DNA of 64,000 nucleotides from Psammoneis japonica (taxonomy: Eukaryota): contig QPGO01000036.1 in the NCBI GenBank assembly GCA_008632985.1, positions 62,001-126,000 of the forward strand, read 5' to 3'. A program made the position numbers and the translations under genes. Positions 4,641 through 44,439 of the stretch are shown piece by piece; position 1 is the stretch's first letter, and each line of letters begins with the position of its first letter. Below the pieces are notes generated by a model. The model was not told the DNA's origin. It made no database searches and saw only the letters and a program-made list of their open reading frames with translations.

Positions 4641-4999
4641 AAAACAAGGACAGCCTTGCAGTCCCACACACAAAGTCTTTGGGATTGATGGCAGTGTCAT
4701 GAAACCTCCATTGTTGCTGTTGCTGTTGTTGGGATCACTGTTTTTGGGGCCACCATTGCCATTGTCTCTGCCACCATTGGGGTCACCATTGCCATTGTTT
4801 TCACCCCTGCTGGAAGGATTCAGTTTCTTTGGTTTGCTGGATTGGACCAAGTCAAAAGTGGAATGGCAGTGTTCACAAGAATGGATGCTCAAGCTGCTCT
4901 TGGATTGTGGCAAAATTGCCAAAAGTCAAGATGAGTGCTCTCCAATCTGGGAAGCAGTGGTGCTGTCAATGGGGTCATGTTGCAGGTGAAAAAGTGTCT

Positions 5000-10449: not shown

Positions 10450-10494
<45 letters not shown>

Positions 10495-12782: not shown

Positions 12783-13596
12783 TCAATGCAACTCATTTTC
12801 CTTCTCAAGAGAGGCCACTGAAGCGCAATGCTTGGAACCGGGGACCTGACAACAATGACAAAATGAGCGAGCCATTGCAGGAGTGACACTGTCAAGAGCA
12901 TCAAGGTGGTGCTCAACCCACCTTGTGCTCCCATGTTGCTCAAAGTGTTTTTTGCAGCAACCAAACATCATTTCAATGGGATTCAAGTCAGGGCAGCATG
13001 GGGCAGTGAAGACAAAAGCAGCTCTCTTTTCTTCAATGATGTCCATGATGCACTGTGAGAGGTGAGTTGATGCATTGTCAAGCACAACAATGGACCTTGG
13101 CTCTCCCTCCTCTTCAAAGTTGTCGGTGCAAGCAGCCAGTTTCTCTTCAAACTAAAGTTCAAATTGCTCCTGATCAACTTCTCCTGTGAGTGGGTTGTTC
13201 TTTTTATCTCTTGCATTGCCCCCAAGGAACAATGTCACAGGCCTCCTTTGCAAATCCATCAATGTCACAAGCCACAAGCAATGAATGCTGAGCCTGTTTG
13301 TTGATCTCAAAGGATGTCAATCAAACAGGAGTTGTGTCTCATTGAGACCACCAGTGCCACCATCTTGATGAGTTTCAATCTTTGTGAGACTCATCCAAGC
13401 ACAGTGGCATTTCAGGTCAATGCACTGCAGCCTTCAATGCTTGGAGATGTGATTCCCTTTCTTTCTTGTCTGTTTCCATGGCCTTGTTTGTCACAACTTG
13501 AAGGGAGCATCCCACTTCCTTTCCAAGTTCCTCATGTGTCTGGGCTGGGCTCCATTTCTTGTGAGCAACCTGGCCCAGCACTTGGGTCACTCGCTC
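12783..13596 (-). mobile_element. Tc1/IS630-like DDE transposase remnant (copy B 42889 to ~43900)
   Basis: LDNASTH...FTAPCCPDLNPIEMMF matches the DNAxxH...PYSPDLNPIE signature of IS630/Tc1 transposases, with Tyr replaced by Cys. Confidence 0.85.
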
Positions 13597-15132
13597 TAAT
13601 CTCGTCCACAGGCTCTTCGACGTACTTAAAGTATCTTTCTTCTGCCCAAATCCATGGCAGCCACACACAAGCCAGTCCTCAAGGATGTCAATGCAGCCGA
13701 CAAATGCTCCGCTCTTAATCCAAAGAGCACGCTGTGCAATTGCTTTATTGGAGCATGCTGCAAAACAGTCCAAGATGTTTCGCCGGATCGAGTTGGCGTC
13801 TGAAACAGAGCAACGAGGTGTGCAGCTGAGAGAACAAATCATCCAGGGAAGGGATGTCGAAGGTCATTTCGACCTGGATCTCTGTTTAATCTTACCTGTT
13901 GCGTTTGTCGTTCTCATTCTCGCACAGCCATTTACTGCATACGTCAAGAGTAGTAATGTTGATGGACGAATCGTAACTGTAGCAAATAACACGTGTGCCG
14001 TAGCTTGACACGCGTTGCAGCCAGTGCAGTTGGCGAGCTTGTCCTTGTACAATCTTGTCATCGCTAACAACCATACATATCGCTACAGGCTTCATCCACA
14101 TAATACCTTGTCCATCCATCATGAGTCTTTTTGTATTTAGATCGATTCTAGTCCTGACGTCGAATGAGATCTGTGTCGCAAAAAATAAAGCCGACGGCAC
14201 CCGAGTTGCTCTGTTGTCGCCTTGCCTTCGCTTGTACCTTCTACTGTACTTGCGTAGCAATTGTTCTGAGTTGATTGCTCCTCTACTAGAAGTTGAAAAC
14301 TATGAAATAAGCCCATTTCAAAACATGGCCGTTTTGTTCAATGCCAAATCGCTGCCGACAACTCGCCGGTCTCGATCACATGTCATTCACGGTTCACGAA
14401 GGAAAAAGGCCGATTCATCATTTCCAACTGGTTCACAGTTTCCTTACCTCATCTTTTTTGTTTCTTATGGACACAAGGACTCATTGATTCTGCTGTTTTG
14501 AGTGAATTGTCCTCCAAACTATCCTTACACTCTAGAGTTGCTTCGTACTTGTTCCAAAAGGGCTCCAGCTCGACTTCACCGTCACGATACCCGTGTCTTT
14601 GTACCCGTTCAAAACGTTTAGCATGATGCAAGGGACACGCATACATGCGATTACCATTCTTATATGGAACAAAGCCCTTTTTACACGGCGTAAAGTCAAG
14701 TGTACGTTTACCGGGAGAAGCAAATTTCAGAGTGGCTTGCACAATCGCTCGGCCTTGAAGTGTGTCACTGCCAGCCGATTCTATGTAGTGACCACCACCA
14801 TACAAGTCCCCGTTCTTCGTTGGATATCCACAAATATAACCCCACGGAACTTGTTCAGTACAACTCGATTTAATTTTATATCATTCACTCGGAAGAATTC
14901 CGAAATCAAGAAACTTGCTCTTGTAAGTGTTGCGTGTTGTTGTTGCAGACTTGATACCTTCTCGCTTAGCTTCTAGTGCTAATAACCTGGCTGAAGAACG
15001 CTTCTTGTTTACGGGTATTACGGGTATTCCTTGGGCACATGTAGCGTGATGTGCCATGACTTGTTGCGGATGTGATGTTGTCTTGGTTGCGGCCGCTACT
15101 TCATCCGCTACTTCATCCAGCACGTTGCTCAT
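13597..15132 (-). pseudogene. Multi-exon gene of unknown function with an in-frame TGA (14883-14881), 3'-truncated at the repeat junction
   Basis: Normal TA/CG composition. ORFs 14881-15225 and 14449-14805 are in the same frame. Candidate GTAAG donors at ~14447 and ~13895 and acceptors near 14290 and 13827 link further ORFs. No domain recognised. Confidence 0.4.
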
Positions 15133-15414
15133 GGTGAATGGCGAGAGCGGTGCGGTGCGGTGCGGTGAAGATGTTGTCTGATGTGTGCGGCGGCGCGCGG
15201 CGCATGGCCGTAGGCATAGGCTCAAGTTGAAGAAATAGGCTGGTATGTCGCCTCAACGGAAAAATCTTTAACATACATCATTTAAGATAATTTTATATGT
15301 GCCGATTTGTAACCTTTTCGCCGAATATTTGGTCCGTCATCTATCCGTCAGATTGTTGATTTTCGTGACCTCTCATGCCTTTTTCACCGCGACATACAAA
15401 GCACGGCACAATGG

Positions 15415-15446
15415 CGCCGTCACGCCGTCACGCCGTCACGCCGTCA
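15415..15446 (+). repeat. (CGCCGTCA)4 tandem octamer between two divergent gene remnants
   Basis: Read directly from the sequence. Confidence 0.9.
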
Positions 15447-15530
15447 CGATTTTGAGCACAAGCGACCGATGCCCCACCTTCCTTTGTGAAAATGCCGTCT
15501 CTTTTACGCCATGGCCGGGGATCAGGCTCA

Positions 15531-16294
15531 ATGTCGGAAGACCGGATTAAGCAGCTAGAATCGGTGGGTTTTGTATGGAATGTGCACGAACAATCCTGGG
15601 ATAAGCATTATCGAGAGCTCGAACAGCTTTACAAAGAACGTGGACATACGCTTGTACCGAATGTAAATGTATCTCCTCTTGGAAAGTTTGTGGCTGGAAC
15701 AACTCAACAAGCTCGAATTCGTTTGGGATGCACGCGAAGCGACTTGGATGGAACGCTACAATGAGCTCTGCAAATATCGAGATAATCACGGTAATTGGTG
15801 AGTAATACTTGGAAGAACCGTATTTGTTTCGGTTGTTGGTATCTGCATGCAAGAGTTGAGTCGAGCTGACTATTATTTCTGTTGTCTCTTGTATGCATCT
15901 CAGTTCGGTTCCAAAAGCATACGATTCTAATCCTGAACTCGGACGCTGGGTGGATAACCAACGATTTCAATATAGGCTTCTCAAAGCAAATAAAAAAGGT
16001 GGTGGGAACAAAACAGTCTCGTTGTCAAAAGAGCGCATTAAGTTATTGAACAAGATTGATTTCATCTGGAATGCCTATGATGTCGCTTGGGTGCAAAAAT
16101 ATCTGAGATTATCGGAATTTGTAAGAATAAATGGTCCGGTCAGTGGTGGAAGTGTTCCTAAAGACCCATCGCTTGCGAACTGGATCCGGAAACAGCGGCA
16201 GCTATATAGAAAACGAATCGAAGGAGAAAAGGTGAGCTTGACGCAAGAGCGCATTGAAGAACTGGAGAAGCTTGGGTTTTCCTGGGAAATGTGA
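15531..16294 (+). pseudogene. Helicase-associated (HA) domain repeat protein; intron 15798-15903; internal deletion/frameshift near 15690
   Basis: RIKQLESVGFVW...WDKHYREL...GHTLVP; LEFVWDAREATWMERYNEL...HGNC|SVP...LGRWVDNQR; LANWIRKQR...RIEELEKLGFSW. GTGAGT...CAG intron. The first repeat jumps frame after GKFV. Confidence 0.8.
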
Positions 16295-17699
16295 GAAAGT
16301 CTCTTGAAAAGCTGTTTTCAGTGTCTTGAAGGGTATGACCGAGTCGATCGGAGTACGAGTTGCATGTGGACGGAAACGATTGCCATGCTTTATTGGTGTC
16401 ATCAGTCTTTCGAAGGCCTTCTTGCTAGTGGCACTTATGCCGCACTCTAAGTGTGCTGCAAGTGCGGGTTAGGCGGCTCCGGCTCTAAATAATGTAGATC
16501 TGTTTTTTTTTTGTTAAAGCGACTGTAGCCACAAGAAAATCTCCAACTTCTTGACGCAAAAGCAATCTGTGCCGCATTGACCAAGCGCAAAGGCAGTCAG
16601 CAAGGCACAAGCTTTCAGCTGCTGGAAATCCACATTGCGCAAAATGAGGGAAACATTCAAGGTTTTGAAGGTCGGCACCCAACAAATTGCGATGGAAAAG
16701 ACACCCATGCAATGGTGCTCCACAAAGGCAAGGCATGGCAGCGCCATGTCCATTTGAGGACAGTTCATACAAACATCAATCAAGTCTCACCCAAGTGCAT
16801 CCTCAAACAGTGTCATTGTCTGACCTGCTTCCACCACATCCTCTTGCACTGCAAGTGGGGAAAGGAACTCAAATTCTGTGCAAGGTTGCATCCTTGTGCA
16901 GCTTGCTCCAACTTTGTGGTCATTGTTCATGAACACCACATCAATCAAGTGGCATGCAGCACATTTTCATCCCAGTTGGGCAACTCAAAGCCATTGACAA
17001 ACACCTCATGCCAACTGTTGCACTGCTCAATGTGCACCAGGGAAAGCCACCATGAGACTTGCTGCCCCATTTCAAAAGCCACAAGAGCTCAGATGCTGCA
17101 CAGTGGAACAACAAATGCAAGGCATCTGCCAGGAAACAGCAGCTTGTTCATTTCTGTGAGGGTTTCTTGGACAGTTTCTGCTGGTTCTGTGGTGGTGTGC
17201 CAACTCTTCTTGCAGGGCCATGAGCACCAGATTGCTGTGCAAAGCCTCTGACAAAGCAGTTGCCTTCTTCCAAGTCAGCATGCAAGTGTGCCTTAAAGAC
17301 TCACCATTTTCACTTTTGCTGTGCAACTGTGATCATTCTGGCAGCAGTGTTTCTTTTCTTGAACATTGACTGAGAGGTGTTCAACCATGTGATGTGCTGC
17401 ATTGCTGGCTTTGCTTTTATCCCTGCCAGGTTTGGGTCAGAATCAAGGTGCAAGTGTTGTCACAGCTGGTTTGTGCACCACTTCCCTTTTTCCATGGTGG
17501 CACATGAGCTGGTGCTGCAATGACATGTTGTGAAGGGCAGTGAAGCAGACCAGTCTTCTGCTGCTCCAGCTGGCCTCACAGTGTTCTGACAGCTTGGTGC
17601 CTCAGTGTGGTGCAGGTGAGTGTGGTTGGGACACAAGTGAGGGCTTTCCACCACTTGAGCATCAACCACCTTGAAACCTGCTAGTGTAGTTGACAAGAA

Positions 17700-18640
17700 C
17701 TCAGTTGTGATGTTGGCATCAGAAGCAGCTCTGGTTGTTTAGCATTGAGCAATGATGAGATCCATTGGAACAAGAAATCAGTGTGGGCACGAGATGTTGT
17801 GTGACTCCATCAGACCATTTTCAGTTTGGTGCATCATGGACATTGACTGACATCTCACAGCACTCTCTCCAGATTTATTTTCTCTGATGCCTTCATTCTT
17901 GAGCAAATCCAGAGCATGTCACAGCCAGCTGTTTTGCAATTGAGACAGCTTGAACAGCCACCAGGCAAGCTGGCAATTGGCATTGCAACAGTCCAGCAAA
18001 TGTCAATGACAAGCCTTGTGGCATCCTGCAATGAAAAAACAAACACCCCAGTGTGGACCCCATCCAAAAAAAAGAGAAGAGCAGTGCAGTGCTGAAACAA
18101 AAACAACAATGTCAAAGCATGCAATGATGCTGCAAGCTCTGCAACCACCATTGCAGTCCATTGATGCACATGATGCAGAACACCTTTCACACAATTGAAG
18201 ATTGCTGTGTTGTGCTTTTGGCATTTCCATTTCTGTTGCAAAGGTTCAAATGTTGAAAATTGCCATTGAAGTTGGTTGCATGGGGTGATGTTGCCTCAAG
18301 ATCCCATCAAAGGATGGAGCTCTCAAGCCTTTGCTGTCTTCAGAGTGAAGTGTCACTAAAAAAAAAGGGGGGGGGGGGGGGGGGCACACTTGAGGAGACA
18401 AAAAGAAAACTTGCAAGTCATGCCAAATCAAAGCTCTGCACAAGTGAAGACTTGCCACACCATGTTGCTGATGTGACGGAGCCCCAAACCTTGCATTCCA
18501 TCAATGGCATGATCTGCTTGGCAAGCTTCTTTTGCTGTTTTGCAGATGAGTGCTGCTGTCTGTTTCAACAAAACCATGACCTTGGGGTCAAGCAAACAGG
18601 CAACTTGTTCCTGTGGTCAAAAACAGCAAGATGGCACTGC
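17700..18640 (+). repeat. Hypermutated copy of the repeat that is intact at ~29560-30500
   Basis: Colinear blocks, e.g. gttggttgcatggggtgatgttgcctcaag versus atcggttgcgtagggtgacgttgcctcaag, and ccatcaatggcatgatctgcttggcaagc versus ccgtcaacggtatgatctgcttggcaagc. Confidence 0.9.
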
Positions 18641-21600
18641 TGACCAACAAAATCCAGACAAAGAAGAGATTGAAGTGGGGCTGCTCAATGACTGTGTGAA
18701 AAATGGCCAAATTAAATGACCAAAATGAAACTCATGAAAAAGAATCTGCCTCCTCTGAATAAAAAAAATGAACCCAGTTTTCCTGCTGGGCATCAGACCT
18801 CTCTCTTCAGCCAACACAATGATCAAAGGCTCTTTCCTGCAATTTCCCACCTGGGACAATCCAGTGCCAGTGCCCAAATGAGCCATCTCTGGCAACTTCA
18901 ACATCAGCAAGAGCCAAGCATCATTTGATGATGCAATGTGTGCATCTTTGGCACCACACACCAATCATTTCTAGGGGAAAATGTGGCCAATCTCAGATTT
19001 CAGCAGAGTCAACAAAAGAAAGCATTGGTTGCTCATTTGCTTGTTGGGTGTGCTTGTCAACTTGCACAGAATCTAAGGGATGATGGGCTCACACTTCAGA
19101 CAATCTTGATTCCCAGACAAATCATCACACACCACATCCCAGCTGTGGCCATCCCAGATTCCCAGATTAAATTAAAGAATGGTGGACAAAAGATCCTCAA
19201 GCCTCTTGGAGGGGCTCACAACTGAAGAAATGAAATTGGTAGATGGTGCCAGAACATGGGGTGGTTGATCTCTTCTGGGTTGAGTGGCAAAGCAAGAACA
19301 AGCTTCCACTGGCAGAAATGATGCACTCTGCATCTGGAACCTTTGTCACAGAACATTGGTGCTTGGGAATGGCACACACAAGGTGGAGCTTTCAGCACTT
19401 GGGGCAGACACGTGCCTTGCTGCTGCTGCTGCTTGATTGACAAAATGAGGTGATCTCCTTTTGCACCTTTTTCTCTTTTTTGCTGGTGACAGATGGGACA
19501 CACATGCCAGAAAACCCCAACAATTGGATGACAAGCACTGCCGTGCATGCCGTGTGGCTCTGTGTGGCACTGTGTGGTGCACAGCACATGAATGTCACAA
19601 AAAAAATGACACCAACTGTGAAAGATGATGCAACACTTGCTCAGATGCAAAGGTTGTTGTTGAGTTGACAAATCAATCACAGGAATGACTTGACTTTTGA
19701 TCACACTGACACATCAACATCAGGCACACAGCATGACAGACCACCACACATGAGGCACAGGGCACTGTGCGCAGGAGACAGACGTCTGGACTTTTTGAAC
19801 AAAGTTGCAACTTGGTGTGGCACCATTTTGCTGTGCCTGAAGAGCAAGAAGTTTGTCATGACAAGCCACACAAAACACATGTCCACCCCCCAGCCTGCAA
19901 GCAATGTCAGCCAAAAACAAATGCAACCAACAAGAAGTGTGGGGCTTGAAGGTTTGAGTGAGCTGTTTTTTTTTTCTTTCAAAAAGGCTCTTGTTTGAGA
20001 CGCTGCTCTGTCTTCTTTTGTCCATCTTCCTCACCATCTGCTGTTTGAATCTTCTCTGATCTCTTGAAAATCCAAAAACAGAGCAATGAGCTTCTGTTGG
20101 TGGTGAAAACAATGTGCTCTGCATCTTTGTCACAGAGTTTGGTGCCTGGCACTGTGCTGTGTGAAGTTGCTGGACTTTTGGTGGAGTGAGCAAGTCAGAC
20201 ATTTTCCATTCTTTGCAAGTGATGGATGGAGCACACACACCAGAAAACTTCAAAAGTTGGACCATGTGGTGTGGCACACACCCATGTGGCACACAAACAC
20301 AAAATGAGGTGTGCACATGTGAAATGACAAATGACAGTGGAGTCCAAGCTGCAGAGTGCAGCATCAAGACTGGTGCGCAGCTGTCAGCACACCCATTGAC
20401 ACTGGACAGTGTTGTTGAGCTCTTTTGTCTCTCTCTTTTTTGTGATGCAGCTGCACTCAATCCACCTGATCCACCCAAGCATTGCAATGTGGATGTTGGC
20501 ACAAGTTCCTCTTCCCAATCAGCATGCTCTTCAGTGCCAAGAAGGGTGGGCCAGTCATTGTTTTGCAACACAGCACATGATGGCCAAGCAAACAAAGCCT
20601 TCCTCAGCATGCAATGAAACTCCTGTCAGCTTGGGCCACACATCAGGAAGCCCTGATGCCAAGAGCCAACCCAATGTTCAGCTGAGTGCACCTGCAAGCA
20701 CTCACACACACAAAGAGAAGAAGAGTGACCATGGAGACATCTCAGTTTGTGGCTGGTGAGAAAGAGCAGCCAATGCCATCATGACAAGTCATGCTTGTCC
20801 AAAATGCCAAAAAAGCTTCTGCCAGACTGCCAAAAAAGCAACTTCAAGCCACACCCTGAGCAACACCACACACCTTTTGCAGCACTGGACATGCAATGAA
20901 TGGCTCAGCAAAGAGGCCAAGGCAACCCCACATGTGATGGCAGCATGACCAACAGACAAACGGCAAAAGCCACACTCAGAAGCATGCAGCTTTGTCAGTG
21001 TTGGTTCATGAGCGAGCATCACAGCAGTGGGGGCAATGCACGTTGTCCTGCAAGGCATGCAAGCATCCCATCCTCTCAGCAAACAACAAACAAGTGCCAG
21101 GAAACATGCGCAGCAGCCAGCAATGTGTGCAGGTGCAGTGCACAGGCAGTGGGGAAACAGCACTGGTCTGTTCCTGGTGTGGAGGAAGCAGTGACAGAAG
21201 GGGGGAGTTTGCCATGACAAACCACACAAAACCCACCAAAACACACCCATCACTCCCAATGACCTAAAAATCAACTAAAAAATGCAACCAACACATGTGG
21301 GGCTTGAAGCCTTGGGCAAGTCATTTTGCTTAAAATGACAGTGAGATGGTGCTCAACACCAGAAAGGCAACCTGTTGCAAGAGGATGTCATGCAACACAG
21401 GAGCACAAGGAAGATTGTCATTTTAACCAGAGCTCATTCCACATTGAACACAAGCTTGCTGTTGTCCAAAGAGAACAGTTTGCTGTTGACACCTCTGTTG
21501 GAAACAAAGAAGTTTGCAGAGTTTGATGACCCCCCTAAAGCTGTCAGTCACAATGAGCTCCGGCATGGCTTCAAGACAATGTGAGTCTAACTCACTGCTC

Positions 21601-24379
21601 TGAAGCACAGAAAATCCAGCTCTGGGTTATGGGTTCTTTCTGCTTCAGCAGAGCATGTGCAGAAAATTCCCGTGCCTGGATTTCAGCAGACAAATGGCTG
21701 TTGAACAAGGAAGAACACACTCAGAAAGGCATTGTCTGCAATGGGATTGGCACGTGTCTGTTGTTGCACCAGAACTCCTCCCAAACAATTGTCTCAGGGT
21801 GGTGCAATTCCTGGAGATGTCTCTGCTGGCCTCTCCACTGGCAAAGTTGAATCTGCATGATGACTCACTCACAAATGGCAGAGATGACAGGCAACAGTTT
21901 CTTCCAAGAGGTGAAGAACCTGTGTTGCTTGAACATTGGCTCAAATGACTTCATCTGCAAAGGCATCCTGCTCCAGTTTGCCAAGCTGGTGCAATTGTTT
22001 GTCATGGACATTTTGAGCTTGGGCTGCACAGGAGAGTTCAAAGAAAAGGCAATCCAGGGGTTGCATGTTCTAAAAACTCTGAGAGAATCAGGAGGAACTG
22101 CAATGGCCAGGATGGCTTTGTGCATGCTGGTCAGCACCAGGAAAATGTTGCACAGAGAGTTTCTGAGCAACAAAAATGTTGCTCACCTGTTGCTGCATGC
22201 ATCCAATTGCTCATGGATCTGAAGACTTGCTGACAACTCACAGAATGTTCTCGGTGTCCTGACAGACTGTCATCCCACCAAGCTTCTGACCATGTGTGTG
22301 CACTCATCAATGCATGGGTGGATGACTCACCAAATTTTTGCACTGTCACAATCATGTTGGATCAGCAATTTGCTGATCTGGTGCTCTTTCATTGAATTTG
22401 CTCCTCCATGGCACCAACTGGCACACAAGTGTCAAACATGTCTGTGATGCCAACTGGCACTCAAGTGTCAAACACACATGCAATGCATGCTTTCATGCAC
22501 TTCAATGACTTGGCTCTGCTGCTGCGTGTGTGCCAGCTGCTGTGAGACAAAATGTCCCTGTCATTCACTCCTGCATGCTTTGACAATTGCACAATTTTTG
22601 CTGTTGCAACTGTTTGGTGTGACCACATTCTGGGCAATTGATGCTGTCAAATAAAAACTCAGGGGTTGACACACTCTCTGAACCACAACAGCCACATGTT
22701 GTCAACCACAAAAACAAGAACAGCAACAAAAAATCAGCACTTTGTGCAGGCAATTCTGATCCCCACCTTGAGTTTTGTTTTGCCCCCCCCCCCGTGCACC
22801 ATGACCATTGCACACAGCCCACCCAAGAGGTCACTTCCTTGGTTGGTTGGAAGTTGCTGATTTTTTGTGAACTCAGGTGCTGCCCTGTCTGGGAAGCAAC
22901 ATTGAGCAACTCCCAATGCAGGCAAGCAACACCTTTGCCAATTGTGCTTTCACTCCTGGAGACAATGCTTGCTGCAATTCTGTGCATCCTTTGAGGTTTG
23001 GCCCTGCACTTCAACTGTGCCAACTTGTTTCTTGTGACAGACAGAATGCCTCAGAAAAGGAAAGCAGCAGAGACCCTCAAGATCAGCTGTTGGTGGTGGT
23101 TGAGTCTTGCACTCATTGTGCTCCCCTTGGCAATCCACAGCAGAAATGTTCTCTGTGGAGGTGTTCAAGAAGGCTCTTCAGAATCTGTCACTTGTGGAGC
23201 CCCTCAACACAAAGGTTGAGCTGTTTTTGGCAGCTTGCATTTGCCTCCACCCAAGTCAGGTTTAAAGCTCTTGCTGCTGTTCCCAGGAGGGGCATGTTGC
23301 ATGAAGAGTGTGGGGGCTTTCACCTCACATTGAAGGAAATGGCTGCAACTGCATGGGTGTCATTTGCTTGAGGCTTGTCCAGATTTTTTATTTTGTGCTC
23401 AAGTTTGAGTGTGGGGGTGGCTGTGTTCACTGGTGGCACCCCCCTTTTAACTTCATTCCTGGACAGACTTCAAGCATCTGGACCGTTTGTGATTCAATTT
23501 GTCAGCACCACAAACACTCTTTCATTGGCTGGCATTGAGGCTTTGCTCCAAGCTTTGCAGCACAGAGACCATCTGTTTCTTTCACCCTCTCAGAGGTTTT
23601 GCTCATGACCAGTTTGTGGGGTCCTGTTTTTCATCTGATGGTGTGTGTTGTTCCATGCACCTGATTGTGTCTAATTTAACATGTGGGCCCTCAGTTGTTC
23701 TTCAAATCCTTTTTGATTTTTCCTTTTCCTGTTTGTGTGCAGGTGGCTTTTCCCTTTGCCTTCTTCTTTGATGGACTCTTTCCTTTTTGAGCCAGCTGCC
23801 TTGTCAACTGCTTCCAACAGATCCTCTCCATGGTCAGCTTCTTCTTCTGCCAGCTCCTCTCTGTGGTCAGCTTTGCAGTCTCAGCTTCTTTTTTTAGAGG
23901 TTTTGCCAACAACTGGGTTTTAGGATCCTTTTTTCACTTGATGTTTTAGGATGTTCTGTGTGCCTGAATGTGTTTGATTTAAATTGTTTTCCCTTTCTTC
24001 CCAGTCTTTTCTTTCTCTTGGTGGTCTGCTCATGACTTGTCTTGTGTCTGTCCTTTTGCATCATTGACTCATCCTTTTTGGACCCAGCTGCCTTGTCAAC
24101 TGCTTCTGCAGCTCCTCTCTGTCATCACTTGTGTTGATCTTTTCAGTTGGATCCACCAAAGCCTCTTCGTCCTCCAGCTTTTGCTGGTCATTGCTTTTTG
24201 CAAACTGCACAGCTGCACCTTTTCACTCATCTGCTGCCTCAACTGGTTTGCCTTCCTGGCTGAGATCTTGTCCTTGTTGCACTTCACAATTTCACAGCCA
24301 GGGTTTTTCATTGAGTGGCTTTTCTCATGAGGCCCATTTCAATTGCAATCACAGTGAAAAACTTGCCTCACTTCAACTC

Positions 24380-25590
24380 CCACTTTTCCCATTTAAATGC
24401 AAGAGTGAATGTCAGAGCGGATCGACTTGCTGGCGCCCATCAAGGTCGCTATGATTGGGACACATCACGTGTTCTCCCGTTTCCTCACTGCCATTCTTGC
24501 TTGTCACTTGCAGACGGCACCTTGACCTCTGGTCACAAGCAACAGCTTCGAAATGCAGCCACTGCTCCCCAGCTGTTGGAGTGCACAGTCGAGCGCAATC
24601 AATGGCGACGAGAGGTTGTTGACCTCGTGAACTGGGACGCCCACGCAGTTTTGATCAAGCGTCATTCCAAGCAACACGTTGGCACGGTGAAACTCGCACA
24701 CGATCTCCTTCCTGCCAACAAGATGGCACACCGGTACAATCCGGTTCGCCCTCATCACTGCCTTGAGTGTGAGCATCCCATGGAAGACAGGGATCACATC
24801 CTTCGATGTCCAGAAAACGAAGCATGGCGCCGGAAGTTTCTACAAGGCCTTCGGAAATGTTGCGACTGCATCGATGCAATGCCAACTCTACGAGACTTCC
24901 TCATCAATTCTCTTCAAGCCTGGTTTAACGAAGAGATCATTTACACGGACGATGTTGATTGCCGCTGTCAGGAGCTGTGGCGCGCGCAATCAGATGTTGG
25001 TTGGAGACAGATTTTTAGTGGCCGCCATTCAACTTTGTGGAACCTGATTCAGTCGGGACATTTGCGGGATTCGGGCATCCTTCGCCAACACAAAGCTGAA
25101 GACAAGCATCCACCAGATTGGACGGCACAGATCGGGTCATTCATCTGGAGACAATGGTGGGAACTGTGGGAGGAACACAATGCATTCATGCACGGCCACG
25201 ATGCGGATTCATGCAAGTCATCCCAATGGCGAATGGCAGAAGCAGAACTGACCGCAATGCATGACAAACAACAAGAGCACCTTGCGAAAGATTGAGCAGC
25301 CCTTCTTGATTCAGTGGAAGAACACAAGACGTTCACAACGGTTCGAATTCAGAATTGGATTGCTGTGGTTCGTCCCCGATTAAAAGAAAGTTTGAAGGAA
25401 GCCAGGAAACTGGCGCGTCGTGGCACACGCACCATTGCCAGTTATTTCCGTCGGGCGTCTCCTCCGGGAGGCGCCGTTTCAGGCTAATCGCATCCACTTC
25501 TGCCGCACTTGCAAGTCAAGTGCACTGGAGGTGTGGGTCAGCCGGCGCCGGTGTTGCTGGGCAAAGGTGCAACAGCACTTTAAATTAGGA
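24380..25590 (+). mobile_element. 5'-truncated non-LTR (LINE-like) retrotransposon, 3' part
   Basis: NVRADRLA (end of RNase H), then VNWDAH, VKLAHDLLP, CLECEHPMEDRDHILRCP (Cys/His finger), QSDVGWRQIFSGR and WELWEEHNAFMHG. Ends at cactttaaattag. TA depleted, CG retained. Confidence 0.8.
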
Positions 25591-27539
25591 TTGGGTTTTT
25601 TTTTCCCACTTTTCCCATTTGGTGTTTGCATTTCCCAACTGCAACAATCCCACATGTGTCTTGGACATGTGGCTCCCTTGTGCTGTGTTTCCCATGTTGT
25701 TTGCAACTTCTGCTTTTCACACATGCTCAGCCGACTTTTTGCAGATCATGCTTGCAGCCTGTTTGCACTTTGTCTTTTCTTCAACACACCCACAGTGCAT
25801 TGGGTCTTTGCATCAACAACAGCATCTGATGGATGGAATGCCTCTCTGAAAATGGCTTTCACTGCATCACTGCTCACAGCCAAATGAAGGGTTGGGGCTC
25901 ATTCTCCTCTTCCTCCTCCTCCATGGTCTCTTCCTCCTGCTCCAAGCAAGTGACTGAGCATCCTCAACAGTTTTTCTCCAGGGTGAACTTCCTTTTCTGA
26001 TGACTCCTCCTTGCCCAAATTGTTTGGCGCATCATTGCCACTCCCTTTCTGGGGTCACTGGCACCATCTGCTGACATTGCTGTGCTGTTGACTTCAGTCA
26101 GTTAATGTGTCAATCATTGCACTCCCTGCACCTGTGCGGCATTGGCTTGGTGAATTTTTGTGATGTTTTTCCAAATGTCAGTGAAACCATGCCATGTGCC
26201 AGATCAGGTTGGTTGTTGCTGATCTGGCACATGCAGTTGCAGAACCCAATGTAACAAGGAAATTGAAATGATTGATTTGCTTTCTTTTCTGTAGAAAGTT
26301 CATTTCCAATCTTGCAGGTGACTGGGCATTTACAATGATTTGCACAAGAAATGACTCTGTGTGTGTGCTGAGTCAGCAATGTCCTTGTCAAATGCAGAAG
26401 GTGGGGTGACTCCACTCTTCCACCCAAGGACTGCAAAGGCTGCCTCCAATCACAGAGGGAGTGCATGAGAAGTTTTGATGAAAAGGCCATCCTGTTCTCT
26501 GCTTGACAACTGAGCAAACATTTGCAAAAAAGCCATGTCAGGTGAGAGAATCCTTCAAATTGAAGCTCAGAAGATGAAGAAGGACCCAGAACAAGATGAT
26601 CCTGAAGCCATTGTTGATCAGTTGTTTGGCATGCTTGAATGTCTGAGGCACAGCTCCAAAGATGAAGCCTGCAACCACTTTGTTGTTTGCAGGTTGCCTT
26701 TTCATCAACACATCACCAACCAAAGCTTGAGGGTTGTCCTGTCAGCCTGTCAGAGATTCACCTCTCCGGCTTCACTGCAAGATGCTTGTTGAAAGGTTCA
26801 AAGGCAGAACAGAAAACCTGGAAGTGACTCTTGATGCAAAGTCAAACATGCCATTGTTTGATGGTCTAAATTTTTTGCAAGAACATTTCAATCTGTCAGT
26901 TGCCAACATGTTTGTTTCCACTTAAGGCAAATCTGGTGAGCACATGTGGAGTGAAGTGCAAGTGAATCTTGGCAACACTTGGCCAACTGCCAGGTTTTTT
27001 ACAAGTTGTTTGACTTGATCAGTGCAACACATGTGGTGCCATGAAGTCTGTGGTGGTTTGTGCTGGAACACAGAATGATGCAGCTGTTGTTTTAAAGTTG
27101 ATTTGCACCTTTTGACAAACACCAACTGTGTCAACTTTTTTTGTGCCATGGTGAAGGAAAGGTTGCCATCAGCTGGAATTCTTTGTGGCCCTTTGAAAAG
27201 AGACAATGAGTTTTCTAAGAAGGGGAAATTAAAAAAGCCAGAAAAAGAGGTTCCCATTTGGGTGAACAGGTGACAGCTGTCCATGAAAGCTCCTCCATTG
27301 ACTGTTGTGGAATGGACATCAACTCTGACTTTCCCAATGCACCACACCTGTCCAACTTTGTGAAAAGGCCAAGAAAGATGAAATTGATGGAAGTTCATCT
27401 TGGCTTTGAGGACTGCAATGATGAAAACTCACAGGCAACAGTGTGTTTTCCAGAAGTGTTGGCAGACAACCAATGCTGATGTGCTGTTTTTCAAACACTC
27501 CTTTTTGTTAGATTGTTCCTGCAGCTGGACAAACATGGC

Positions 27540-27995
27540 AAAATCTGGTTTGCCAAGACAACAAGGTGCTGCACCCACCCATGACAAGGCTTGCACTGCC
27601 CAACCACAGTTCTTGGCATGCCCCCAGGGACCCAACTGAGCCCACCATCACCATTTGCCAGGCAACTTTGGACTTGCCCCATCGTGCCATTGTCCACCTT
27701 GTTTCTGCAACAGGGCTGATGTGGGGCAAAATCCTGGTCTGCCAGGACAACAAGGTGCTGCATCTGCCCAAGACAAGGCTTTCACTGCCCAACCATGGTT
27801 CTTGGCATGTCCCCAGCAACCTGACACAGCTCTTCGTCAGCCGCCACATTGCAGTGCAACTGTGGACTTGCGCACTGTCTCATCATTGTCTGCCTTGTTT
27901 CTGCAGCATGACTGATGCGGCACAATCTTGGTCTGACAACAAGGTGCTGTGTCCACCCAAGGCAAGGCTTGCATTGCCCAACCACAGTTCTTGTT
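27540..27995 (+). repeat. Three diverged tandem units with 189-bp period
   Basis: acaacaaggtgctg...caaggctt.cactgcccaacca..gttctt starts at 27558, 27747 and 27936. Confidence 0.85.
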
Positions 27996-28794
27996 GTGTC
28001 ATCGCCAGAAACCCCCAACAGAGTCCACAACCACCGTCCCAGCCAAAGCAGCTGCACAATTTCTTTGTCACTTTTTTGTGACACCCAAGGCTCTGCAGCT
28101 GGGAATCTCCACTGTGCCAAAATGATGATGAGGGACAGGCGGGGCTTCCTGTTCTTCCAGCCACCAAAGACAACACACTCAACCATCCAACCATGGTTGG
28201 TTGGTGGCGCAAGTCCAATGAGAAGTTCCATCCTTCTTTGTTCTTTGTTTCTCCCGAATCGCGCGCACGCGCATAATTTTTGCCCACACACAACACACAA
28301 CATCAACAGCCACAATGACATCAGAAGCCGCACTGCTCCAGCGTCGCAACCACAGCGTCTCATCTTGCAGTTCCTTTTGAAACATAAACTTCAATACACC
28401 CTTGACACAAGCTTGGCGTTTTGTTTTTTTGGAATTGATCAGGTGAAGAGGTGTGCAAATGCAAATTCGAATGTGAGATTGGTGCTGCATGCAGCGATTT
28501 GTGCGCGTGGTTTCGGTATTTTTCGAGTTGGGGGAGTTTCAAGTTGTGTTATTGCGTTTCTCACACGTTTTGCCGACGTTGTATGAATATTCAGGATTTA
28601 TTCTGTTTGTTTAACATATAAGGGATACTTCAGTCATTTGTTGGTGCTCCTGGAGATGTTCATACCGTGATGTAAGGGGGGTGCGCTATCACAGCTGCGC
28701 CATGACGCTGCGAATGAATCCTATGTTTCGAAGCTTTCTCCGTACTTGAGCGACCCTTGTATTTTATGACACCCACCAAAGTCGAGAATACGAC

Positions 28795-29652
28795 TTAATG
28801 CTGTTGTGCTCTGTGTTCTGGGAATTGTTTTGCAAGCATAAGGGTGCTTTGTTTTGACGCACCGACCGACAAATCTTGTGTTGCGCTGGTCTCGTTAGGC
28901 GCGGCTCCATGTGTCGCACGATATTGGCAACTGGTAAGTGACTGTTTCAAGTTTTCAAATATGAAATTGAATTTTATCGCATTACTCAATGTCGTGATTG
29001 TAGTCCGGCCAACAGGATTCGCAAATGGCCGCTCCGTGCGTCCCGCAAGCGCTGCACCAGAGTCTCGTCTTGTGACAATGTGCATCAAGCTGGGCCGAGG
29101 GAACGTCGCCATCGGTATTGTCCCGAATCTTGCTGTAACACGATCTACATCATCTAGGATGAGTTGCTGCAGTGCTTCTTTCCTTCTGGCAAACAACTGC
29201 TGCTGCGTCATGAGGAGTCGGTCGTCGCTTCCACCGATGCCATGGGTAAGTCCCTCTTTACATAAGAAGCATTCTTTGCAGTCGCATGGAATGTACCCAA
29301 GTTTCCTCATCCGTTTTGGTTTTGATTCTTCAATTCCCGTGTCTTTCCAATCAAGCTTGATCCATTGGCTCATCATCTCTAGCGCTAAGTCCATTTGGAA
29401 CTTGTACCGCCCTTGGTTTTTTGAAGAATACCTGTGCCACGGATGATTTGCATCATGCTCAGCAATGTATTTCACAATGACATACATCGCGTGGAGGATG
29501 CCATCAACATTCAAAAAGAATATTGAATCGCCCACCATCTCTTCCGAAAGTGGGTTGGCGTAGTTGAGATACCGGTATCGGAAGTAGCTCTGGTTTGGAC
29601 AACATCCATTGGAACTAGAAATCGGCGTGGACACGACGTTGCGTGACTCCAT
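28795..29652 (-). mobile_element. C-terminal fragment of a putative piggyBac-like transposase, in an unmutated repeat island (~28570-31180)
   Basis: SIFF..DGILHAMYVIV...GRYKFQMDLA...DW...KPKRMRK.GYIPCDCKECFLCKEGLTHGI resembles C-termini of piggyBac-type transposases with a Cys-rich finger (from memory, not searched). No catalytic core or TIRs found. Confidence 0.5.
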
Positions 29653-30589
29653 TAGACTTTTTTCAGTTTGGTGTATTGCGGGTGTTGACTGCTATCTCAT
29701 AGCACTATCTCTAGATTTGTTTTCTTTACTGTCTTCATTCACGAGCAAAACCCGGAACGCTCGGGAATTTCGAATATTACGTTCCTGTCTACAGAGCATC
29801 GTAGCTAGCTACTTTGTAATTGAGATGGCTCGCATAACCCCGAGGGAAGCGGGCGATTAGCGTCGCAATAGTCCAGCACATATCGATGACAAGCCTGGGG
29901 GCATCCCGTAATGACCACCCCAGCGTGGACCCCATCTGAAAGAAAGAGGGGAGCGGTGTAGTACTAAAACAGAAACAACGACATCGCAAGCGCTACGACC
30001 GCCATCGTAGTCTATTGACGTACGTACGGAATACAATACGCAAGAATAAAGATTGCTATCTTGTACTTTTAGTCTTTCTACTTGTATTGGAATAGTTTCA
30101 AAGAGTGTTTCAAAATTTGAAACACACCAACGTCAAAAGTTGATATAGAAATCGGTTGCGTAGGGTGACGTTGCCTCAAGAGCGCCATCAGAAGATAGCG
30201 CTCAAGCTTTTTCCTATTTTCGGGGTGGATCAACATCCCAAAAAAAGAAAAAGGGGGGACGTACTACGGAGACAGCAAGAAAACTTGCGAGTCAACCGCG
30301 TTCTAAATCAACACTCCCTACGAGTGAAGACTTACCGCATCATGTCAATGACACGACAGAACCCCAAACCTGTGTTCCGTCAACGGTATGATCTGCTTGG
30401 CAAGCTTTTGCTGCTTCACAGACGAACGCTGCTGTCTGTTTCAACAGCCGTGACCTGACGGGTCAAGCGAACAGGCAACTTCCTACGCTCAAAGACACGA
30501 GAGTGACATGGACTCAAGGCCGGAGAGACGCATTCGATTTGCCCCGACCTCTGGACTTAACTGGCAACACCTACGCCGCCGATTGAGAA

Positions 30590-30882
30590 AACACGCCATC
30601 AAGCAAAATGATTTGTGGAATTCCAAACAAGAGCGAGCAATCTATTCCAGAAGAAGGGCGAGCCATCCTCGGCGATCGCGGCATTCGTTGCTTGGCAAAC
30701 AACAAACACATCGTGCGAGACGACTAGTTTTAAAAGAGAGACAACACGCCATCAAGCAAAATGAGTTGTATAACTGCCAAGCAAGAGAAGACTTTCTATT
30801 ATCCACAGGAAGGGTGAGCCATCCTGGGCGATCGCCTGCGTTCCTGCTTGGCAAACAACAAACACATCGTGCGAGACGACGA
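30590..30882 (+). repeat. Two ~153-bp-period direct repeats
   Basis: aacacgccatcaagcaaaatga...gcttggcaaacaacaaacacatcgtgcgagacgac occurs twice. Confidence 0.9.
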
Positions 30883-31717
30883 GTTGTGAGCGAAAGAAGG
30901 CGCGAAAGAAAAAAGCGTTCGAGAGTTTTGGTTTGTGTCGTGACCGTTGCCAATTTTCTCAATCACTATCATTTTTGTGTATGTTTGTATAATCGATACC
31001 ATCACTTCGTATGTAGAACATTCGTGAGATCTTGGTACTTTCAAAAATATTACGAATTCCTACGTACGCTTCACGGTAACCGTAGAAAACGCAAAAACCG
31101 CCGTCGCCGCCACCAAACTCGTCAACGGTAGCCGTACGCAAGTACAGACGCAGAAAACTACCGCCGAGCGAGCGAGCGAGCGCAAGCCCATTTGGAGATC
31201 GAGGTCATCACACTTCGAAGCAGCTCAAACATCAAACATGCCGACAGTTCACACTGCACCGCAGTTGCAGTTTGCAGTGTTGATCGATCGCCATGACAGC
31301 AAAGATGGATGTGAACGACAGTGGCAACTCCAATCCAACAGCAACACATGACTTGTCAGGGTTTCGAAAGAAAGCATCGAAGATCCCATCAGAGTTCTTG
31401 GATGAAGAAATCAAAACCCAAGAAACTGAAACAGCAACAGGGTGCAAGTCTTGGCTTTGTGGCCACATCAATCTTGCACAAGAACAAGAGCTTTCAACAG
31501 AGTCATGTCATTTCTTTGATTTGAGTGGGTTTGCAATGTTGAAGAATCTGTGGGGTGTTTGCAGCAACTGCATCTGTCGGGCATGCAGAAGAGGATGCTC
31601 AAAAACGTGACAGCATGCATGACTAAATTTTGACCAATGATGCACTCCTTTCCAAAGTCAGAAATGCACACCACATCAAATTGTCTTCATTCAGACAGCA
31701 ACTGACACTGAGACAAG

Positions 31718-31875
31718 ATGGCCGGAGTTCTTCTGCTGGCAACAGATCAAGCCGGAGAAACAATGTGGCTGCAAGGTGTTGTGGCAGCTGTCAAGATGGG
31801 AGCAACCAAGGCAGACTTTGACAATGTGATTGGAATCCACCCCACACAAGCAAAAAAACTGGCAACAATGCAAGT
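31718..31875 (+). pseudogene. Glutathione reductase C-terminal fragment
   Basis: [32 protein letters not shown] matches the GR dimerisation-domain motif [20 protein letters not shown]. Confidence 0.8.
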
Positions 31876-32099
31876 GCTGCTGTGTCATTTTACAAGAATG
31901 ACAAAAGGGTGGAAGAGAGTGGCCTTGCAGTGTCCTCAGCTCCAGGTGTGCACCAACCTTGTCCCACAGCCTCTTGGGCTGGCCCATTGAACAATCAATG
32001 CCAGAAGCAACTTTGGACATGTGCATTTTACAGTGTGTCATTGCAAGTCAGGGTGCAATGAATCCACAAAAAACACACAGGAGGCGATCCGTGCCTGAA

Positions 32100-32300
32100 T
32101 GGTCCTGTGCACATGCCAACCACAAACCTTGGGACATGCAGCACCAAACACCACACCGTGGGCCCCAGACAAGAAAAAAACTCTTGAGAGATGACATCTG
32201 AAAGAAAGAGAGCAGCAGTGTGGTGCAAAAACAGAAATGATGACATGAAAGCATGCAACAATGCTTCAAATGCTGCTGCAGTCATTGCAGTCCATTGACT
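32100..32300 (+). repeat. Third, hypermutated partial copy of the 29850-30020 repeat
   Basis: catctgaaagaaagag...gtgtggtgcaaaaacagaaa...gtcattgcagtccattgac versus catctgaaagaaagag...gtgtagtactaaaacagaaa...gccatcgtagtctattgac. Confidence 0.75.
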
Positions 32301-32381
32301 GGCTTGTGCACAAACAAAGCGTTCGCATTCCCTCTCGGGCTTCTTCATTTTTTGAGCCTTGTCATCTCGCTCGTTTTTTAG

Positions 32382-35300
32382 ATGATTGTGATTTCTTCGC
32401 GAAAGTTGCCGTGCAGTGACACTCACGGACTGAATCCAGTCCATGCGTCCACTCGAGCTGCTCCATCCTGGCAGCTGGTGCCGCTGGTGCCCACACCAAA
32501 GAGACAAACCCACAACAAAAGGCAAAAACAATGGTCCTCAACAAAGTTCCTAAGAATGGCCACAGTTAAATGTGGGTGGTCTGTGAATCACACAACCCAA
32601 AATGAGAAGCAAGACCCCCTCTGGGTGCCCTCCTCCTGCCTGCCTTGTCCCCCTGCCCCCTCCTGACAACATCATCATTGCAGCTGATCCAACACAACTG
32701 AGAATGTTCATTGGTCAAATCAGCTGGAGTTGCAGCATCAAAAATGGGAAGTGGAACATGCCACATTGCCAAAAACCAAAACACTTGACATGAGGATGGC
32801 CAGTGTCAGCTGCCACCCTTGGAAGAAAAAATTTCAAAAGCCATGGTTCACATCCAAAGAATGTGACAAAAAGAAGGAAAAGAGCCTTGCTGAGCAAATG
32901 GGCAGGGACGGCGACAACTTCCACACTCTCTGTCAAACAAACCATTGGAAGCTTTTGTCAGACAAGAGACAAAATGCACTCAAAAGAAGGATTTTGTTGA
33001 GCTTGTAGAATGTCTCAGCAAAGAACCCAAATGCATGAGCTTGGAGACTGCCATTGATGCCAACATTTGTGGCCCACAAGCTGCATCATCATTGGACCAT
33101 TCTCTTCCACATTGTGTGAAGGAATGGGGAGGAGGACAGGGCAGCACCTTTGAGGATCTGCTGCATGGTTTTTTGGACTGGGAACTTGAACATTTGTCTG
33201 AAAACTGGTCCTTGATCTCTCAGCTCCTTGGCCTGTCATTTTCCTCAAGCTCAAGCTGCCAGGAAAATGCTGCAAAGCCAACAAAGGACCACGATGAGAG
33301 TTTCCACTTGAGGACCAACCTCTTCATCAGCAGCAACACAGCATCACAGCAACATTTGGTTTTTTGATGCACATGGGTGCACTCACATGGCACCAACCAG
33401 TGAAACAAATGAGCTGTGTTGTGATCTTCCAGTTGTGCAGATTGCTGATTTTGAGGTTCAGCTCTCCATCTCCAATTCTGTGAATGGGACGAAGAAACTC
33501 CAATCTCCTCCAGAAACGCTTCACCTTGATCTGCCTCTTCTAAGCCAGAGCACTCTGCTTGCTGATGACTTGTTGCATTTTTCAGGTCCATCCTTGGGGT
33601 TGCTTTTGTGTGGTGCATCATGCGGCATGTCACACAAGGCTGCTTTAACCATGACTGGATTTGAGAAGTTTTTTTTTGTCGATCAGCTCGGAACTCACTC
33701 CTTCATCCCAGCAGAGGCCACAGGGCCTCATTTTTTCCAATCAAATCATCAACCAGCAAAAAGCAGCCACAAGTGGCTGACAATGATCTGGCCTTGGCAG
33801 ACGCACTGCACCCGGTGCTTCTGGCACATCAGAAAATGACAGAGCTCCTCTCTTCTTTGCACCAGATCCCTTGTTGTTGTTTCCTGCTTGTCCTTGTTCT
33901 CTGCAATGTTCAGAAGAATGGAGTCCTGACACTGTGGACTGCAACAAACATGGTGGCTGCATCTTGTTCCATTGCACCCTCCATGATGAAGAAGAACATT
34001 GATGTTGTTTGACATGCATTTGGCATGCAGGAAGCATCCACAGGCGGTGTCTTGATCATGCACAATGATGGCAATGACAATGAAACATCCCAAGTGCCAC
34101 AAGAACTGTCCAGTGCTGTGGGCACCTTCTTTTTTGACCCAGGCTGCACCTTGCATGCAGCCATGGGCTTTGGCTGTGGCAGGGGCCCAGCATGTGTGCT
34201 TGACCAATTTGCCAACCTTGGTGGAATGTGGCATTCAATCCAATTTGCTGTGCAATGGGGCTGCATTTGACAGTGATGATGGTGACAACAATGCAAAAGT
34301 TGCAACAACCATGTTGGGTTGGACACGCCCGGTGCCAACCCATTCAATGAAACAAACATGGGACTCAATTGTTGCCTCCAATTGCCTCTTGTTGCAGCAC
34401 TTGTGTCAAAACACAATCTGCACTGTGGATGCATTGCCATCACCTGCAACACAATTTCTCTTCACCTCTCAATGCCATGTCTTAAATGAACAACAAACAA
34501 CTTTGGAACAAGTTTTGTGGGGGTGACTCATGTCAAACACAAACGGCATTGCAAGTGCCAGGCACACCATGTTGCTTGAATGAGATGGTGCTGACAAGTT
34601 GAACAGCTGCAGTGAGTTGTTCTTGTGGCATGTGAAGTGGCAGTTGGGGCACCCAACTTGAGAGAGCATGTGAGAGAGAGAGAGAGAGAGAGAGGGGGGA
34701 GGGAGGGAGAGAGGGAGGGAGGGAGGGAGAGACACACGCTCATTTTGCAAATTTGCTTTCTTCTTTTTGTGCAAAGAAATGCAACAATGGGCACAGGATG
34801 GGGCTTCTTGTTGTAGAAATTTCTTCTGGCATGAATGCACAAGCAACAAGCATGATCCATTCACTGTCTGGTGACTTTGTTGCAGCAGACAGCAACAAAA
34901 GGGGATGTCCATCCATGCAAGTGGCAGAACGTGCGCATCCAAAAGTGTGGCTTGACTGCTTGGGTGCACTTGCAGACACTGCCAAATGGCCAAAAATGAA
35001 CAACATTAATCACACTGAAGAGCAGACAGATTTGCAATCAAAAACAGTGCATGCAAATGCATCAACACAGGAAAGACAAGCATGTGGCACATGGTTTTTA
35101 GTTGAAGTCAGTCCATCTAAATGCAATGACACATGGCCCACCCAAGTTTCCTCCTTTGAAGACACAGCCATTCACAGACTGCACAAAAAGGCCCTGGTGG
35201 TGTTGCACCCATGCTGGGTTTGTTTTCACAACTGGCATCACAAAAGGATGGGCATGTGCCAATGACTGCATCTGTTGGAAGTTTCAAACCCCAAGCATGC

Positions 35301-40539: not shown

Positions 40540-40576
<37 letters not shown>

Positions 40577-44435: not shown

Positions 44436-44439
<4 letters not shown>

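Follow-up and report, generated by a model that had tools for sequence, protein, structure and literature searches.

Why should large parts of a diatom genome read TG or CA at nearly every pyrimidine-purine step? The question is raised by 64,000 nucleotides from Psammoneis japonica (assembly GCA_008632985.1, contig QPGO01000036.1, positions 62,001 to 126,000), here called the window and numbered from its first base. By hand sums of segments, about 49 kb of the 64 kb are depleted of TA, and some 40 kb within these are depleted of CG as well. In the blocks that have lost both, here termed doubly erased (38.8 kb counted), the observed/expected ratios are 0.11 for CG, 0.05 for TA and 1.86 for CA/TG, as against 1.03, 0.61 and 1.18 in normal blocks. 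Across the erased DNA, rho for TpA is 0.02–0.1 over tens of kb and the CG ratio is 0.04–0.15. All statements below on domains, borders and targeting refer to this one window, together with public sequence collections.

The explanation that we favour, and hold to be probable though well short of certain, is a domain-targeted hypermutation of TpA to TpG or CpA, acting alongside ordinary decay of methylated CpG.

A repeat in two states

The substitutions can be seen directly in a repeat of about 0.9 kb. Copy A (29562–30512, + strand) lies within the normal block 28517–31159 and has 46 CG and 50 TA in its aligned core. Copy B (17702–18640, + strand) lies within a doubly erased domain, and has 1 CG and 2 TA left, none of them at a CG or TA site of A. 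Self-BLAST aligns 17760–18625 with 29604–30497 (66.6% identity, 944 columns, E 2e-85), and a MAFFT global pair alignment gives a core of 869 ungapped columns, comprising 651 identities, 162 transitions and 56 transversions. Of the 46 CG of A, B keeps none (TG 20, CA 20, other 6), nor does it keep any of the 50 TA (CA 25, TG 19, other 6), so that 84 of these 96 sites now read TG or CA, evenly split. The other 14 dinucleotides of A are kept at 480 of 756 sites (63%; 42–82% each). Taken together, AA, AT and TT are kept at 129 of 180 sites, compared with 0 of 50 for TA (Fisher p = 1.6e-22); the corresponding figures are 77 of 126 for CC, GC and GG, and 0 of 46 for CG (p = 2.6e-15). A wider count over the pair gives 22 changes of CG to TG and 21 to CA, and 26 of TA to CA and 19 to TG. 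Thirteen columns show flips between TG and CA.

An earlier, sequence-only reading of the window had presented A and B as a before/after pair for the loss of both dinucleotides, with nearly every CG and TA converging on TG or CA and thereby explaining the TG/CA-saturated texture of the region. The three letter strings that it quoted are all found where it placed them, and the counts above bear out the pair, the convergence and the account of the texture; the comparison of TA with AA, AT and TT that it suggested has been run, and finds TA far worse kept. It had also called copy A intact. A does represent the state before the loss, but as an apparently multi-copy family member it need not be pristine. 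The third decayed copy that it saw at about 32100–32300 is present, but only as a fragment of about 110 bp (copy C, 32195–32300, + strand, found in the alignment), which shares with B an 18-bp segment that is absent from A.

The best reading is that A and B belong to one repeat family, A being young and B old. Many variant contigs of a public run map onto the intact A block (depth here is not a copy number), and the 18-bp segment recurs in a contig from another member of the family, which has TA at the point where B and C read CA. In a three-way alignment of A, B and C, B and C agree at five of A's CG/TA sites and have opposite outcomes (TG in one, CA in the other) at two, which implies one change in each lineage if CG/TA is ancestral. 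A direction of change from CG and TA to TG and CA is supported by these outcomes, by the family contig, and by the normal host blocks and 80 copia loci described below. A protein-level search found no homology in the flanks of A and B. Recoding as purines and pyrimidines recovers the homology of erased domains; at loose thresholds the recoded BLAST gave uncalibrated noise, and only strong matches and the segment 32195–32300 were retained. Separately, B has about 20 G at 18360–18386, where A (30243–30267) has six G after a short run of A; this is a homopolymer expansion.

A composition this odd could in principle be an artefact of base calling or polishing at modified bases, or could mark foreign DNA that is poor in TA and CG. 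The oddity of composition is the only point in favour. Logan short contigs, assembled separately from a public run, cover 16.1–27.7 kb in six listed pieces of 577–3500 bp, with 0–2 differences in each and a depth of 60–70, and one of these (16118–17025) bridges the border between normal and erased DNA. The run is probably the assembly's own sample; it therefore excludes polishing errors, and adds no independent biological support. The window also contains a segmental duplication of about 13.6 kb (1–13596 and 32382–43702), mostly 98.5% identical, and about 91% over the first 1 kb. At pyrimidine-purine columns the two copies make the same TG/CA choice 2,371 times and are flipped 10 times. Random base calls are thus excluded, and the erased state is inherited. 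The A/B homology, which shows conversion within one sequence family, also speaks against these readings. We regard both artefact and foreign origin as barely credible.

A further public run, X2, covers only 16.0–16.5 kb and 28.3–31.0 kb, plus traces in three bins. On account of the skips given next it may resemble cDNA; its record does not describe it as RNA, and the missing cover over the erased blocks is no evidence of silence. X2 skips 28473–28594, 28933–29002, 29245–29354 (all GT..AG) and 30578–30650 (GC..AG), which look like + strand introns; joining the four stretches between the GT..AG skips gave no long + strand open frame.

Domain borders and the separation of TA loss from CG loss

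The domain borders are directly observed. Dense TA stops or starts at 13597, 16527, 28517, 31159, 49337 and 56652, in each case sharply to within tens of bases. The doubly erased domains are 1500–13592 (duplicated at 33316–43702), 16742–24418 (which includes copy B), 25549–28140, and 31378–48969 (which includes copy C, the second duplication copy and a run of N at 44483–44666). They contain relics of gypsy-type reverse transcriptase (RT)/RNase H and of DDE_3 transposase, three BspA-like DUF285 frames, a MutS domain V fragment and methyltransferase fragments, and remnants of each of these types lie in 1500–13592. The normal blocks consist of host genes and their spacers (YCII, MatE, CobW and an HA-domain gene) or of apparently young insertions. 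They include 13597–16527 and the host-gene block 49337–56652, which holds YCII, MatE and CobW/G3E GTPase genes among others, and has CG at about 1 and TA at about 0.6, non-coding DNA included. TpA loss is therefore regionally restricted, in that the host-gene blocks of the window keep TA at about 0.6.

The TA and CG borders do not coincide. At four of the six, the CG border lies 215–380 bp further out than the TA border (16527/16742, 28517/28140, 31159/31378 and 49337/48969). This leaves margins in which only TA is lost: 16527–16742, between the normal block 13597–16527 and a doubly erased domain; 28140–28517 and 31159–31378, to the left and right of the normal block with copy A; and 48969–49337, to the left of the host-gene block. 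A longer block, 24418–25549, has the same character, with CG at about 0.9 and TA at 0.14–0.18, and a diverged relative of it at 45375–46196 has lost both.

The most extended case is a copia-type retrotransposon (gag, protease, integrase and RT; + strand) that begins at 56653, directly after the last dense TA at 56652, and runs off the window at 64000. Its TA ratio is 0.00–0.27 per 500-bp bin from 57001, and 0.41 in the border bin, while its CG ratio is 0.68–1.28 and mostly about 1. It has lost more than 85% of its TA; its TA frequency is 0.007, as against 0.036–0.069 in 12 relatives. Its RT has relatives in Fragilaria. Because a change of TA to TG or CA cannot create an in-frame stop, the element has a 1994-codon open frame that Pfam barely recognises. 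Seven surviving TA are clustered at 57623–57953 in the otherwise TA-free element, and this segment could be protected or later acquired.

At the opposite end of the scale is a young terminal-repeat element of 435 bp (1026–1460, + strand), with 109-bp direct arms (1026–1134 and 1352–1460), TG..CA ends and a 4-bp target duplication. It lies in the first copy of the segmental duplication, which has as its extras this element and 1.75 kb at 8108–9860, and whose duplicated part ends exactly at the erased/normal border 13596. In the second copy the site of the element, at about 33316, is empty, and the element was thus inserted after the duplication. Its two arms differ at nine positions, of which eight are TA in the left arm and TG or CA in the right, and one is of another kind. 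The right arm, which lies beside the erased flank, has lost 8 of 8 TA within 44 bp (1411–1454) and kept 4 of 4 CG (Fisher p = 2e-9); outside this tract the element is untouched. Since the arms of one element should match at insertion, this shows TA loss acting on integrated DNA, in tracts, and independently of CG loss.

No extended CG-only state is found in the window, the reverse pattern being confined to a single 500-bp bin (56001–56500). CG loss is therefore nested inside TA loss. That the two losses are separable is supported by direct observation, and here the sequence-only reading needs refining: both are indeed lost in B, but by two separable processes and not by one. A pair that appeared to offer a CG-only before/after comparison (24700–25650 and 45300–46250, with 46 of 49 CG changed) was rejected as too diverged and partly misaligned.

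The survivors also have a context of their own, which can be read directly. Among 90 surviving TA in erased DNA (with the duplicate copy dropped), none is in RTAY, where R is purine and Y pyrimidine (ATAT, ATAC/GTAT or GTAC), or in ATAG/CTAT, against an expected share of 44% from normal blocks or 36% from TG/CA source contexts (p below 1e-17). TTAA, TTAG/CTAA and CTAG are enriched 1.6–3.6 fold. The 24 TA that are common to both duplicates comprise 12 YTAR, 12 mixed and no RTAY. YTAR is not immune, as seven were lost in the A/B pair and two in the repeat arm. There are two possible readings: RTAY may be the favoured target, with YTAR resisting attack, or YTAR may be where most new TA arise. Surviving CG have a different hierarchy, with TCGA depleted (0.2–0.25x) and GCGC enriched (1.9–3.3x), which argues for two processes.

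A single system might nevertheless erase both steps, in the form of a dual-specificity DNA deaminase or of one targeting machinery directed at A in TpA and at C or 5-methylcytosine (5mC) in CpG. Both losses do fill the same domains, both have symmetric TG/CA outcomes, and there is a precedent in the ADAT2 of amphioxus and of Trypanosoma, which act on A and C in DNA (as cited in bioRxiv 10.64898/2026.01.13.699255). TA-only states are, however, common (the 7.3 kb of copia, the 1.1-kb block, the four margins, and the arm in which 8/8 TA went and 4/4 CG stayed), and the flank preferences differ, with CG survivors avoiding TCGA and favouring GCGC, and TA survivors favouring TTAA and never RTAY. One system for both is thus quite unlikely.

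It is also necessary to ask whether targeting is needed at all. TpA and CpG could be hypermutable throughout the genome, in which case erased DNA would simply be old and neutral, and normal DNA selected or young. The presence of degraded gene remnants in the erased DNA is in keeping with this, as is the make-up of the normal blocks, which are either host genes or insertions that look young. But, with the exception of one bin, the non-coding spacers of the host-gene block keep TA at 0.44–0.85 and CG near 1; the borders are too abrupt, as given above; the copia element has lost most of its TA with CG at about 1 and a long open frame; and a very young element has lost every TA from a tract of 44 bp, its remainder being untouched. 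We therefore consider an untargeted origin very unlikely.

Some observations on the contents of these domains may be added. The DUF285, MutS and two methyltransferase-like frames in erased DNA lie at 3272–4925 (−), 5682–6140 (+), 2201–2668 (+) and 48289–49350 (+). The last straddles a TA-only margin, where the loss of TA may be eroding a host gene. Two viral-contig scans found no relatives of the MutS and DUF285 frames, and the list of DUF285 homologues is of mixed taxa, covering about 40% of the query. The CobW/G3E GTPase (52994–54454, −) has relatives of 48–56% identity in Fragilaria crotonensis, Cylindrotheca and Seminavis, and a best match overall of 63%. The TA-only block 24418–25549 has a 326-codon frame with no Pfam match, and relatives at 45375–46196 and 8471–8613. 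Many contigs of run X1 match it, at a summed depth of up to about 3200 (which is not a copy number), and differ by TA/TG changes and TG/CA flips; its family may be erased copy by copy. The run of N is flanked by a simple dinucleotide-type repeat (44440–44717) with self-hits at offsets of 2, and the gap is probably in a microsatellite. ARAGORN and Rfam scans of the window found nothing.

Speed, timing and the attacked base

The duplication provides a measure of speed. The two copies have 126 differences, of which 111 are transitions, and outside pyrimidine-purine columns they differ at 59 of 10,372 aligned columns (0.57%). Set against the 8 of 8 TA lost from the arm of an element that is younger than the duplication, this gives as a rough bound that TA loss is hundreds of times faster than ordinary substitution, although the tract could be a single burst. 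CG is present in both duplicates at 61 sites and in only one at 36. Two erased tandem repeats show flips between TG and CA in 11 of 60 and in 9 of 43 paired pyrimidine-purine columns. Flips of this kind would be expected if CG or TA had arisen briefly as an intermediate.

The copia element gives information on strands. Alignments of its integrase and RT contain 22 conserved tyrosine columns, of which 3 are kept as Tyr and the others now read Cys (11), Trp (1), His (3), Phe (3) or Leu (1); the process has thus damaged the element. On the sense strand this amounts to 12 changes of A to G and 3 of T to C (binomial p = 0.035), which is the only asymmetry found. In keeping with its direction, the RT region has a G content of 0.223, as against about 0.16 in the three closest relatives, and its gain of TG is greater than that of CA. 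Attack on adenine, together with partial exposure of the non-template strand, would account for the asymmetry, though the evidence is thin.

The same asymmetry could be taken to mean that the editing occurred before integration, by conversion of A to inosine in retroelement RNA, or in complementary DNA (cDNA) during reverse transcription. It also suits such editing that TA loss in copia starts no more than about 11 bases from a possible terminal TGT, the host flank being spared. However, the two arms of the young element differ, and their loss came after integration. T to C changes also occur on the sense strand (3 of 15 Tyr changes), and the outcomes in the A/B pair are symmetric. Remnants that are not retroelements (DDE transposase, DUF285 and MutS) are erased as well. 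TAG is the best triplet for ADAR, which prefers a 3' G, and yet TAG is here among the most persistent contexts. Editing before integration is thus highly improbable.

An alternative with more to recommend it is that the attacked base is thymine. A TET/JBP-like enzyme might oxidise or hypermodify it, to a base of the 5-hydroxymethyluracil or formyluracil type, which would mispair with G and give T to C. TET/JBP enzymes make such modified bases in other protists. In double-stranded DNA the outcome would be the same as that of adenine deamination, and RTAY, which is absent among the survivors, is a palindromic four-base pattern that fits an enzyme reading the duplex. Against it, the excess of A to G over T to C on the copia sense strand (12 to 3) would weakly point to adenine, if it arises from non-template exposure or transcription-coupled repair. 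We consider attack on thymine unlikely.

We thus return to targeted TpA hypermutation with CpG decay. In this model two context-specific mutation processes would alter the DNA where it lies, within bounded and probably silenced domains that are rich in transposon relics. The first would be a fast hypermutation of TpA to TpG or CpA, that is, an A:T to G:C transition on either strand; its likeliest chemistry would be deamination of adenine to inosine by a DNA-acting deaminase of the ADAT/TadA type, as has been proposed for the rhizarian Bigelowiella natans. The second would be a slower decay of methylated CpG to TpG or CpA, 5mC presumably being present. With the domain of CpG loss nested in that of TpA loss, the two together would drive all four self-complementary and transition-related pyrimidine-purine steps towards TG and CA. 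The enzyme, the methylation, the silencing and a role in defence are what we infer.

A number of observations weigh against this model. Changes in the A/B pair are not clustered by strand (40 runs, compared with 44.7 ± 4.7 in shuffles, p = 0.18), and there is thus no sign of a processive single-strand enzyme. The symmetric outcomes do not distinguish A from T as the attacked base, and in the mixed YTAY contexts the edited strand gives 17 TG and 9 CA, which is not significant. TA is present in both duplicates at 24 sites and in only one at 11, so that residual TA is apparently stable; the process is then either limited by context or no longer active everywhere. Gene remnants lie inside the erased domains besides the transposon relics. 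Finally, the phenomenon is not general. Among 80 related copia loci from metagenomes (322 kb), where whole-locus TA ratios are 0.47–1.0, only 3 of the 1001 windows of 1 kb have a ratio under 0.25, and these 322 kb yield a single low-TA patch of about 1.5 kb; the search relied on conserved peptides and would miss mutated copies. The sole such patch (L052:251–1750) has TA at 0.16–0.25 and CG at about 0.6, and may be a milder case in another organism.

Relation to known systems and significance

Within the literature searched we found only one prior report of TpA-specific hypermutation, a 2026 preprint on B. natans (Mettrop et al., bioRxiv 10.64898/2026.01.13.699255), and the present case is so far the second eukaryotic lineage; for diatoms, no report was found in the open-access PMC and bioRxiv literature. 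According to the preprint, giant-virus and virophage DNA that has become integrated is the target in B. natans. In two integrated viral regions the mutation-accumulation lines had acquired 231 mutations, of which 230 were A to G or T to C, all at TpA, at about 1000 times the background rate; an ADAT2-like enzyme is proposed (10.64898/2026.01.13.699255).

The two cases are alike in their defining signature and in its regional restriction. Only TpA is affected, and it turns into TpG or CpA, as with 44 of the 50 TA in A/B and 8 of the 9 arm differences here. The changes are restricted to delimited regions, the rest being normal, and here too probably arise at a rate far above background. There is long-term depletion of TpA with a gain of CpA and TpG, in B. 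natans enriched in transposon-type domains (DDE and RT). There are also differences. The present organism is a diatom, and hence a stramenopile, while B. natans is a rhizarian. Rho for TpA is 0.45 in the B. natans viral region, far above the values found here over tens of kb. The window adds a nested loss of CpG, TA-only margins and survivors that are never RTAY; the preprint text has no occurrence of CpG, flanking context, diatoms or stramenopiles (10.64898/2026.01.13.699255). The targets there are viral, whereas here they are copia, gypsy RT/RNase H and DDE_3 relics together with DUF285, MutS and methyltransferase remnants, with no demonstrated viral origin. The B. natans rate comes from mutation-accumulation lines, while ours is derived from paired copies only (8/8 TA, in duplicates 0.57% apart).

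The CpG component resembles the decay of methylated CpG in vertebrates and plants, in that CG goes to TG and CA equally, that the change is confined to non-genic domains rich in repeats, and that it is slower than the loss of TA. It differs from the typical form in that CG is very low (0.04–0.15) and survivors are poor in TCGA and rich in GCGC; methylation would here be deduced from this decay. Diatom 5mC is reported to be restricted to transposons (PMC9998398; 10.1101/2025.04.15.648976).

Two other known systems call for comparison. Classical repeat-induced point mutation (RIP) changes C to T, mainly at CpA, and makes TpA. It is ruled out here, where TpA is destroyed (0.05 observed/expected) and CpA/TpG is raised to 1.86. 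The likeness to RIP lies in the context-specific transition hypermutation of transposon DNA, which leaves degraded relics and can leak across borders. Unlike RIP, the present process shows no clear sign of depending on duplication, as the listed contigs of erased stretches each have a single-copy-like depth of 60–70 and the apparently multi-copy A family is intact (depth not being a copy number). Fungal RIP is reported to include a TCG-directed variant in basidiomycetes (PMC3318451), and diatoms to have DNMT4 enzymes that are related to the fungal RID protein and have no known function (PMC9998398). Similarly, ADAR and APOBEC produce deaminase-driven clusters of transitions against selfish elements, but here sequences that are not retroelements are affected too, and no C to T signature of TC or CC contexts was seen to dominate, though no test was aimed at one. 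ADAR prefers U before the edited A, according to the Discussion of the B. natans preprint (10.64898/2026.01.13.699255). RNA editing of the ADAR type is ruled out by the fact that both strands are hit (TA to CA 26, to TG 19), by the change after integration and by the survival of CTAG and TTAG.

A wider hypothesis, which is possible but on balance doubtful, is that TpA hypermutation is an old arm of defence across the SAR (stramenopile, alveolate and rhizarian) supergroup. In diatoms it would have become coupled to chromatin, with an enzyme that reads the duplex with a palindromic preference for RTAY, and that deaminates adenine in silenced domains and for one nucleosome-sized step beyond the methylated core. 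If this were true, the tyrosine and other TA codons of transposons would be irreversibly scrambled without a stop ever being created, and together with CpG decay the result would be a heterochromatin state free of pyrimidine-purine palindromes that could be read from sequence alone.

At a practical level, erased domains confuse repeat finders and gene callers, having no TAA or TAG stops, long open frames and low DNA identity. The window provides natural experiments, in the form of young/old pairs, repeat arms and TA-only margins, on tract length, context (with RTAY apparently going first and YTAR last), strand bias and speed. As diatoms are genetically tractable, knock-outs could identify the enzyme at work; both the biology of genome defence and base-editing technology would have an interest in a natural DNA adenine deaminase. 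A second and far more extreme case would show that the process is not an oddity of one species, and would tie it to transposon-rich silent domains and to the loss of CpG.

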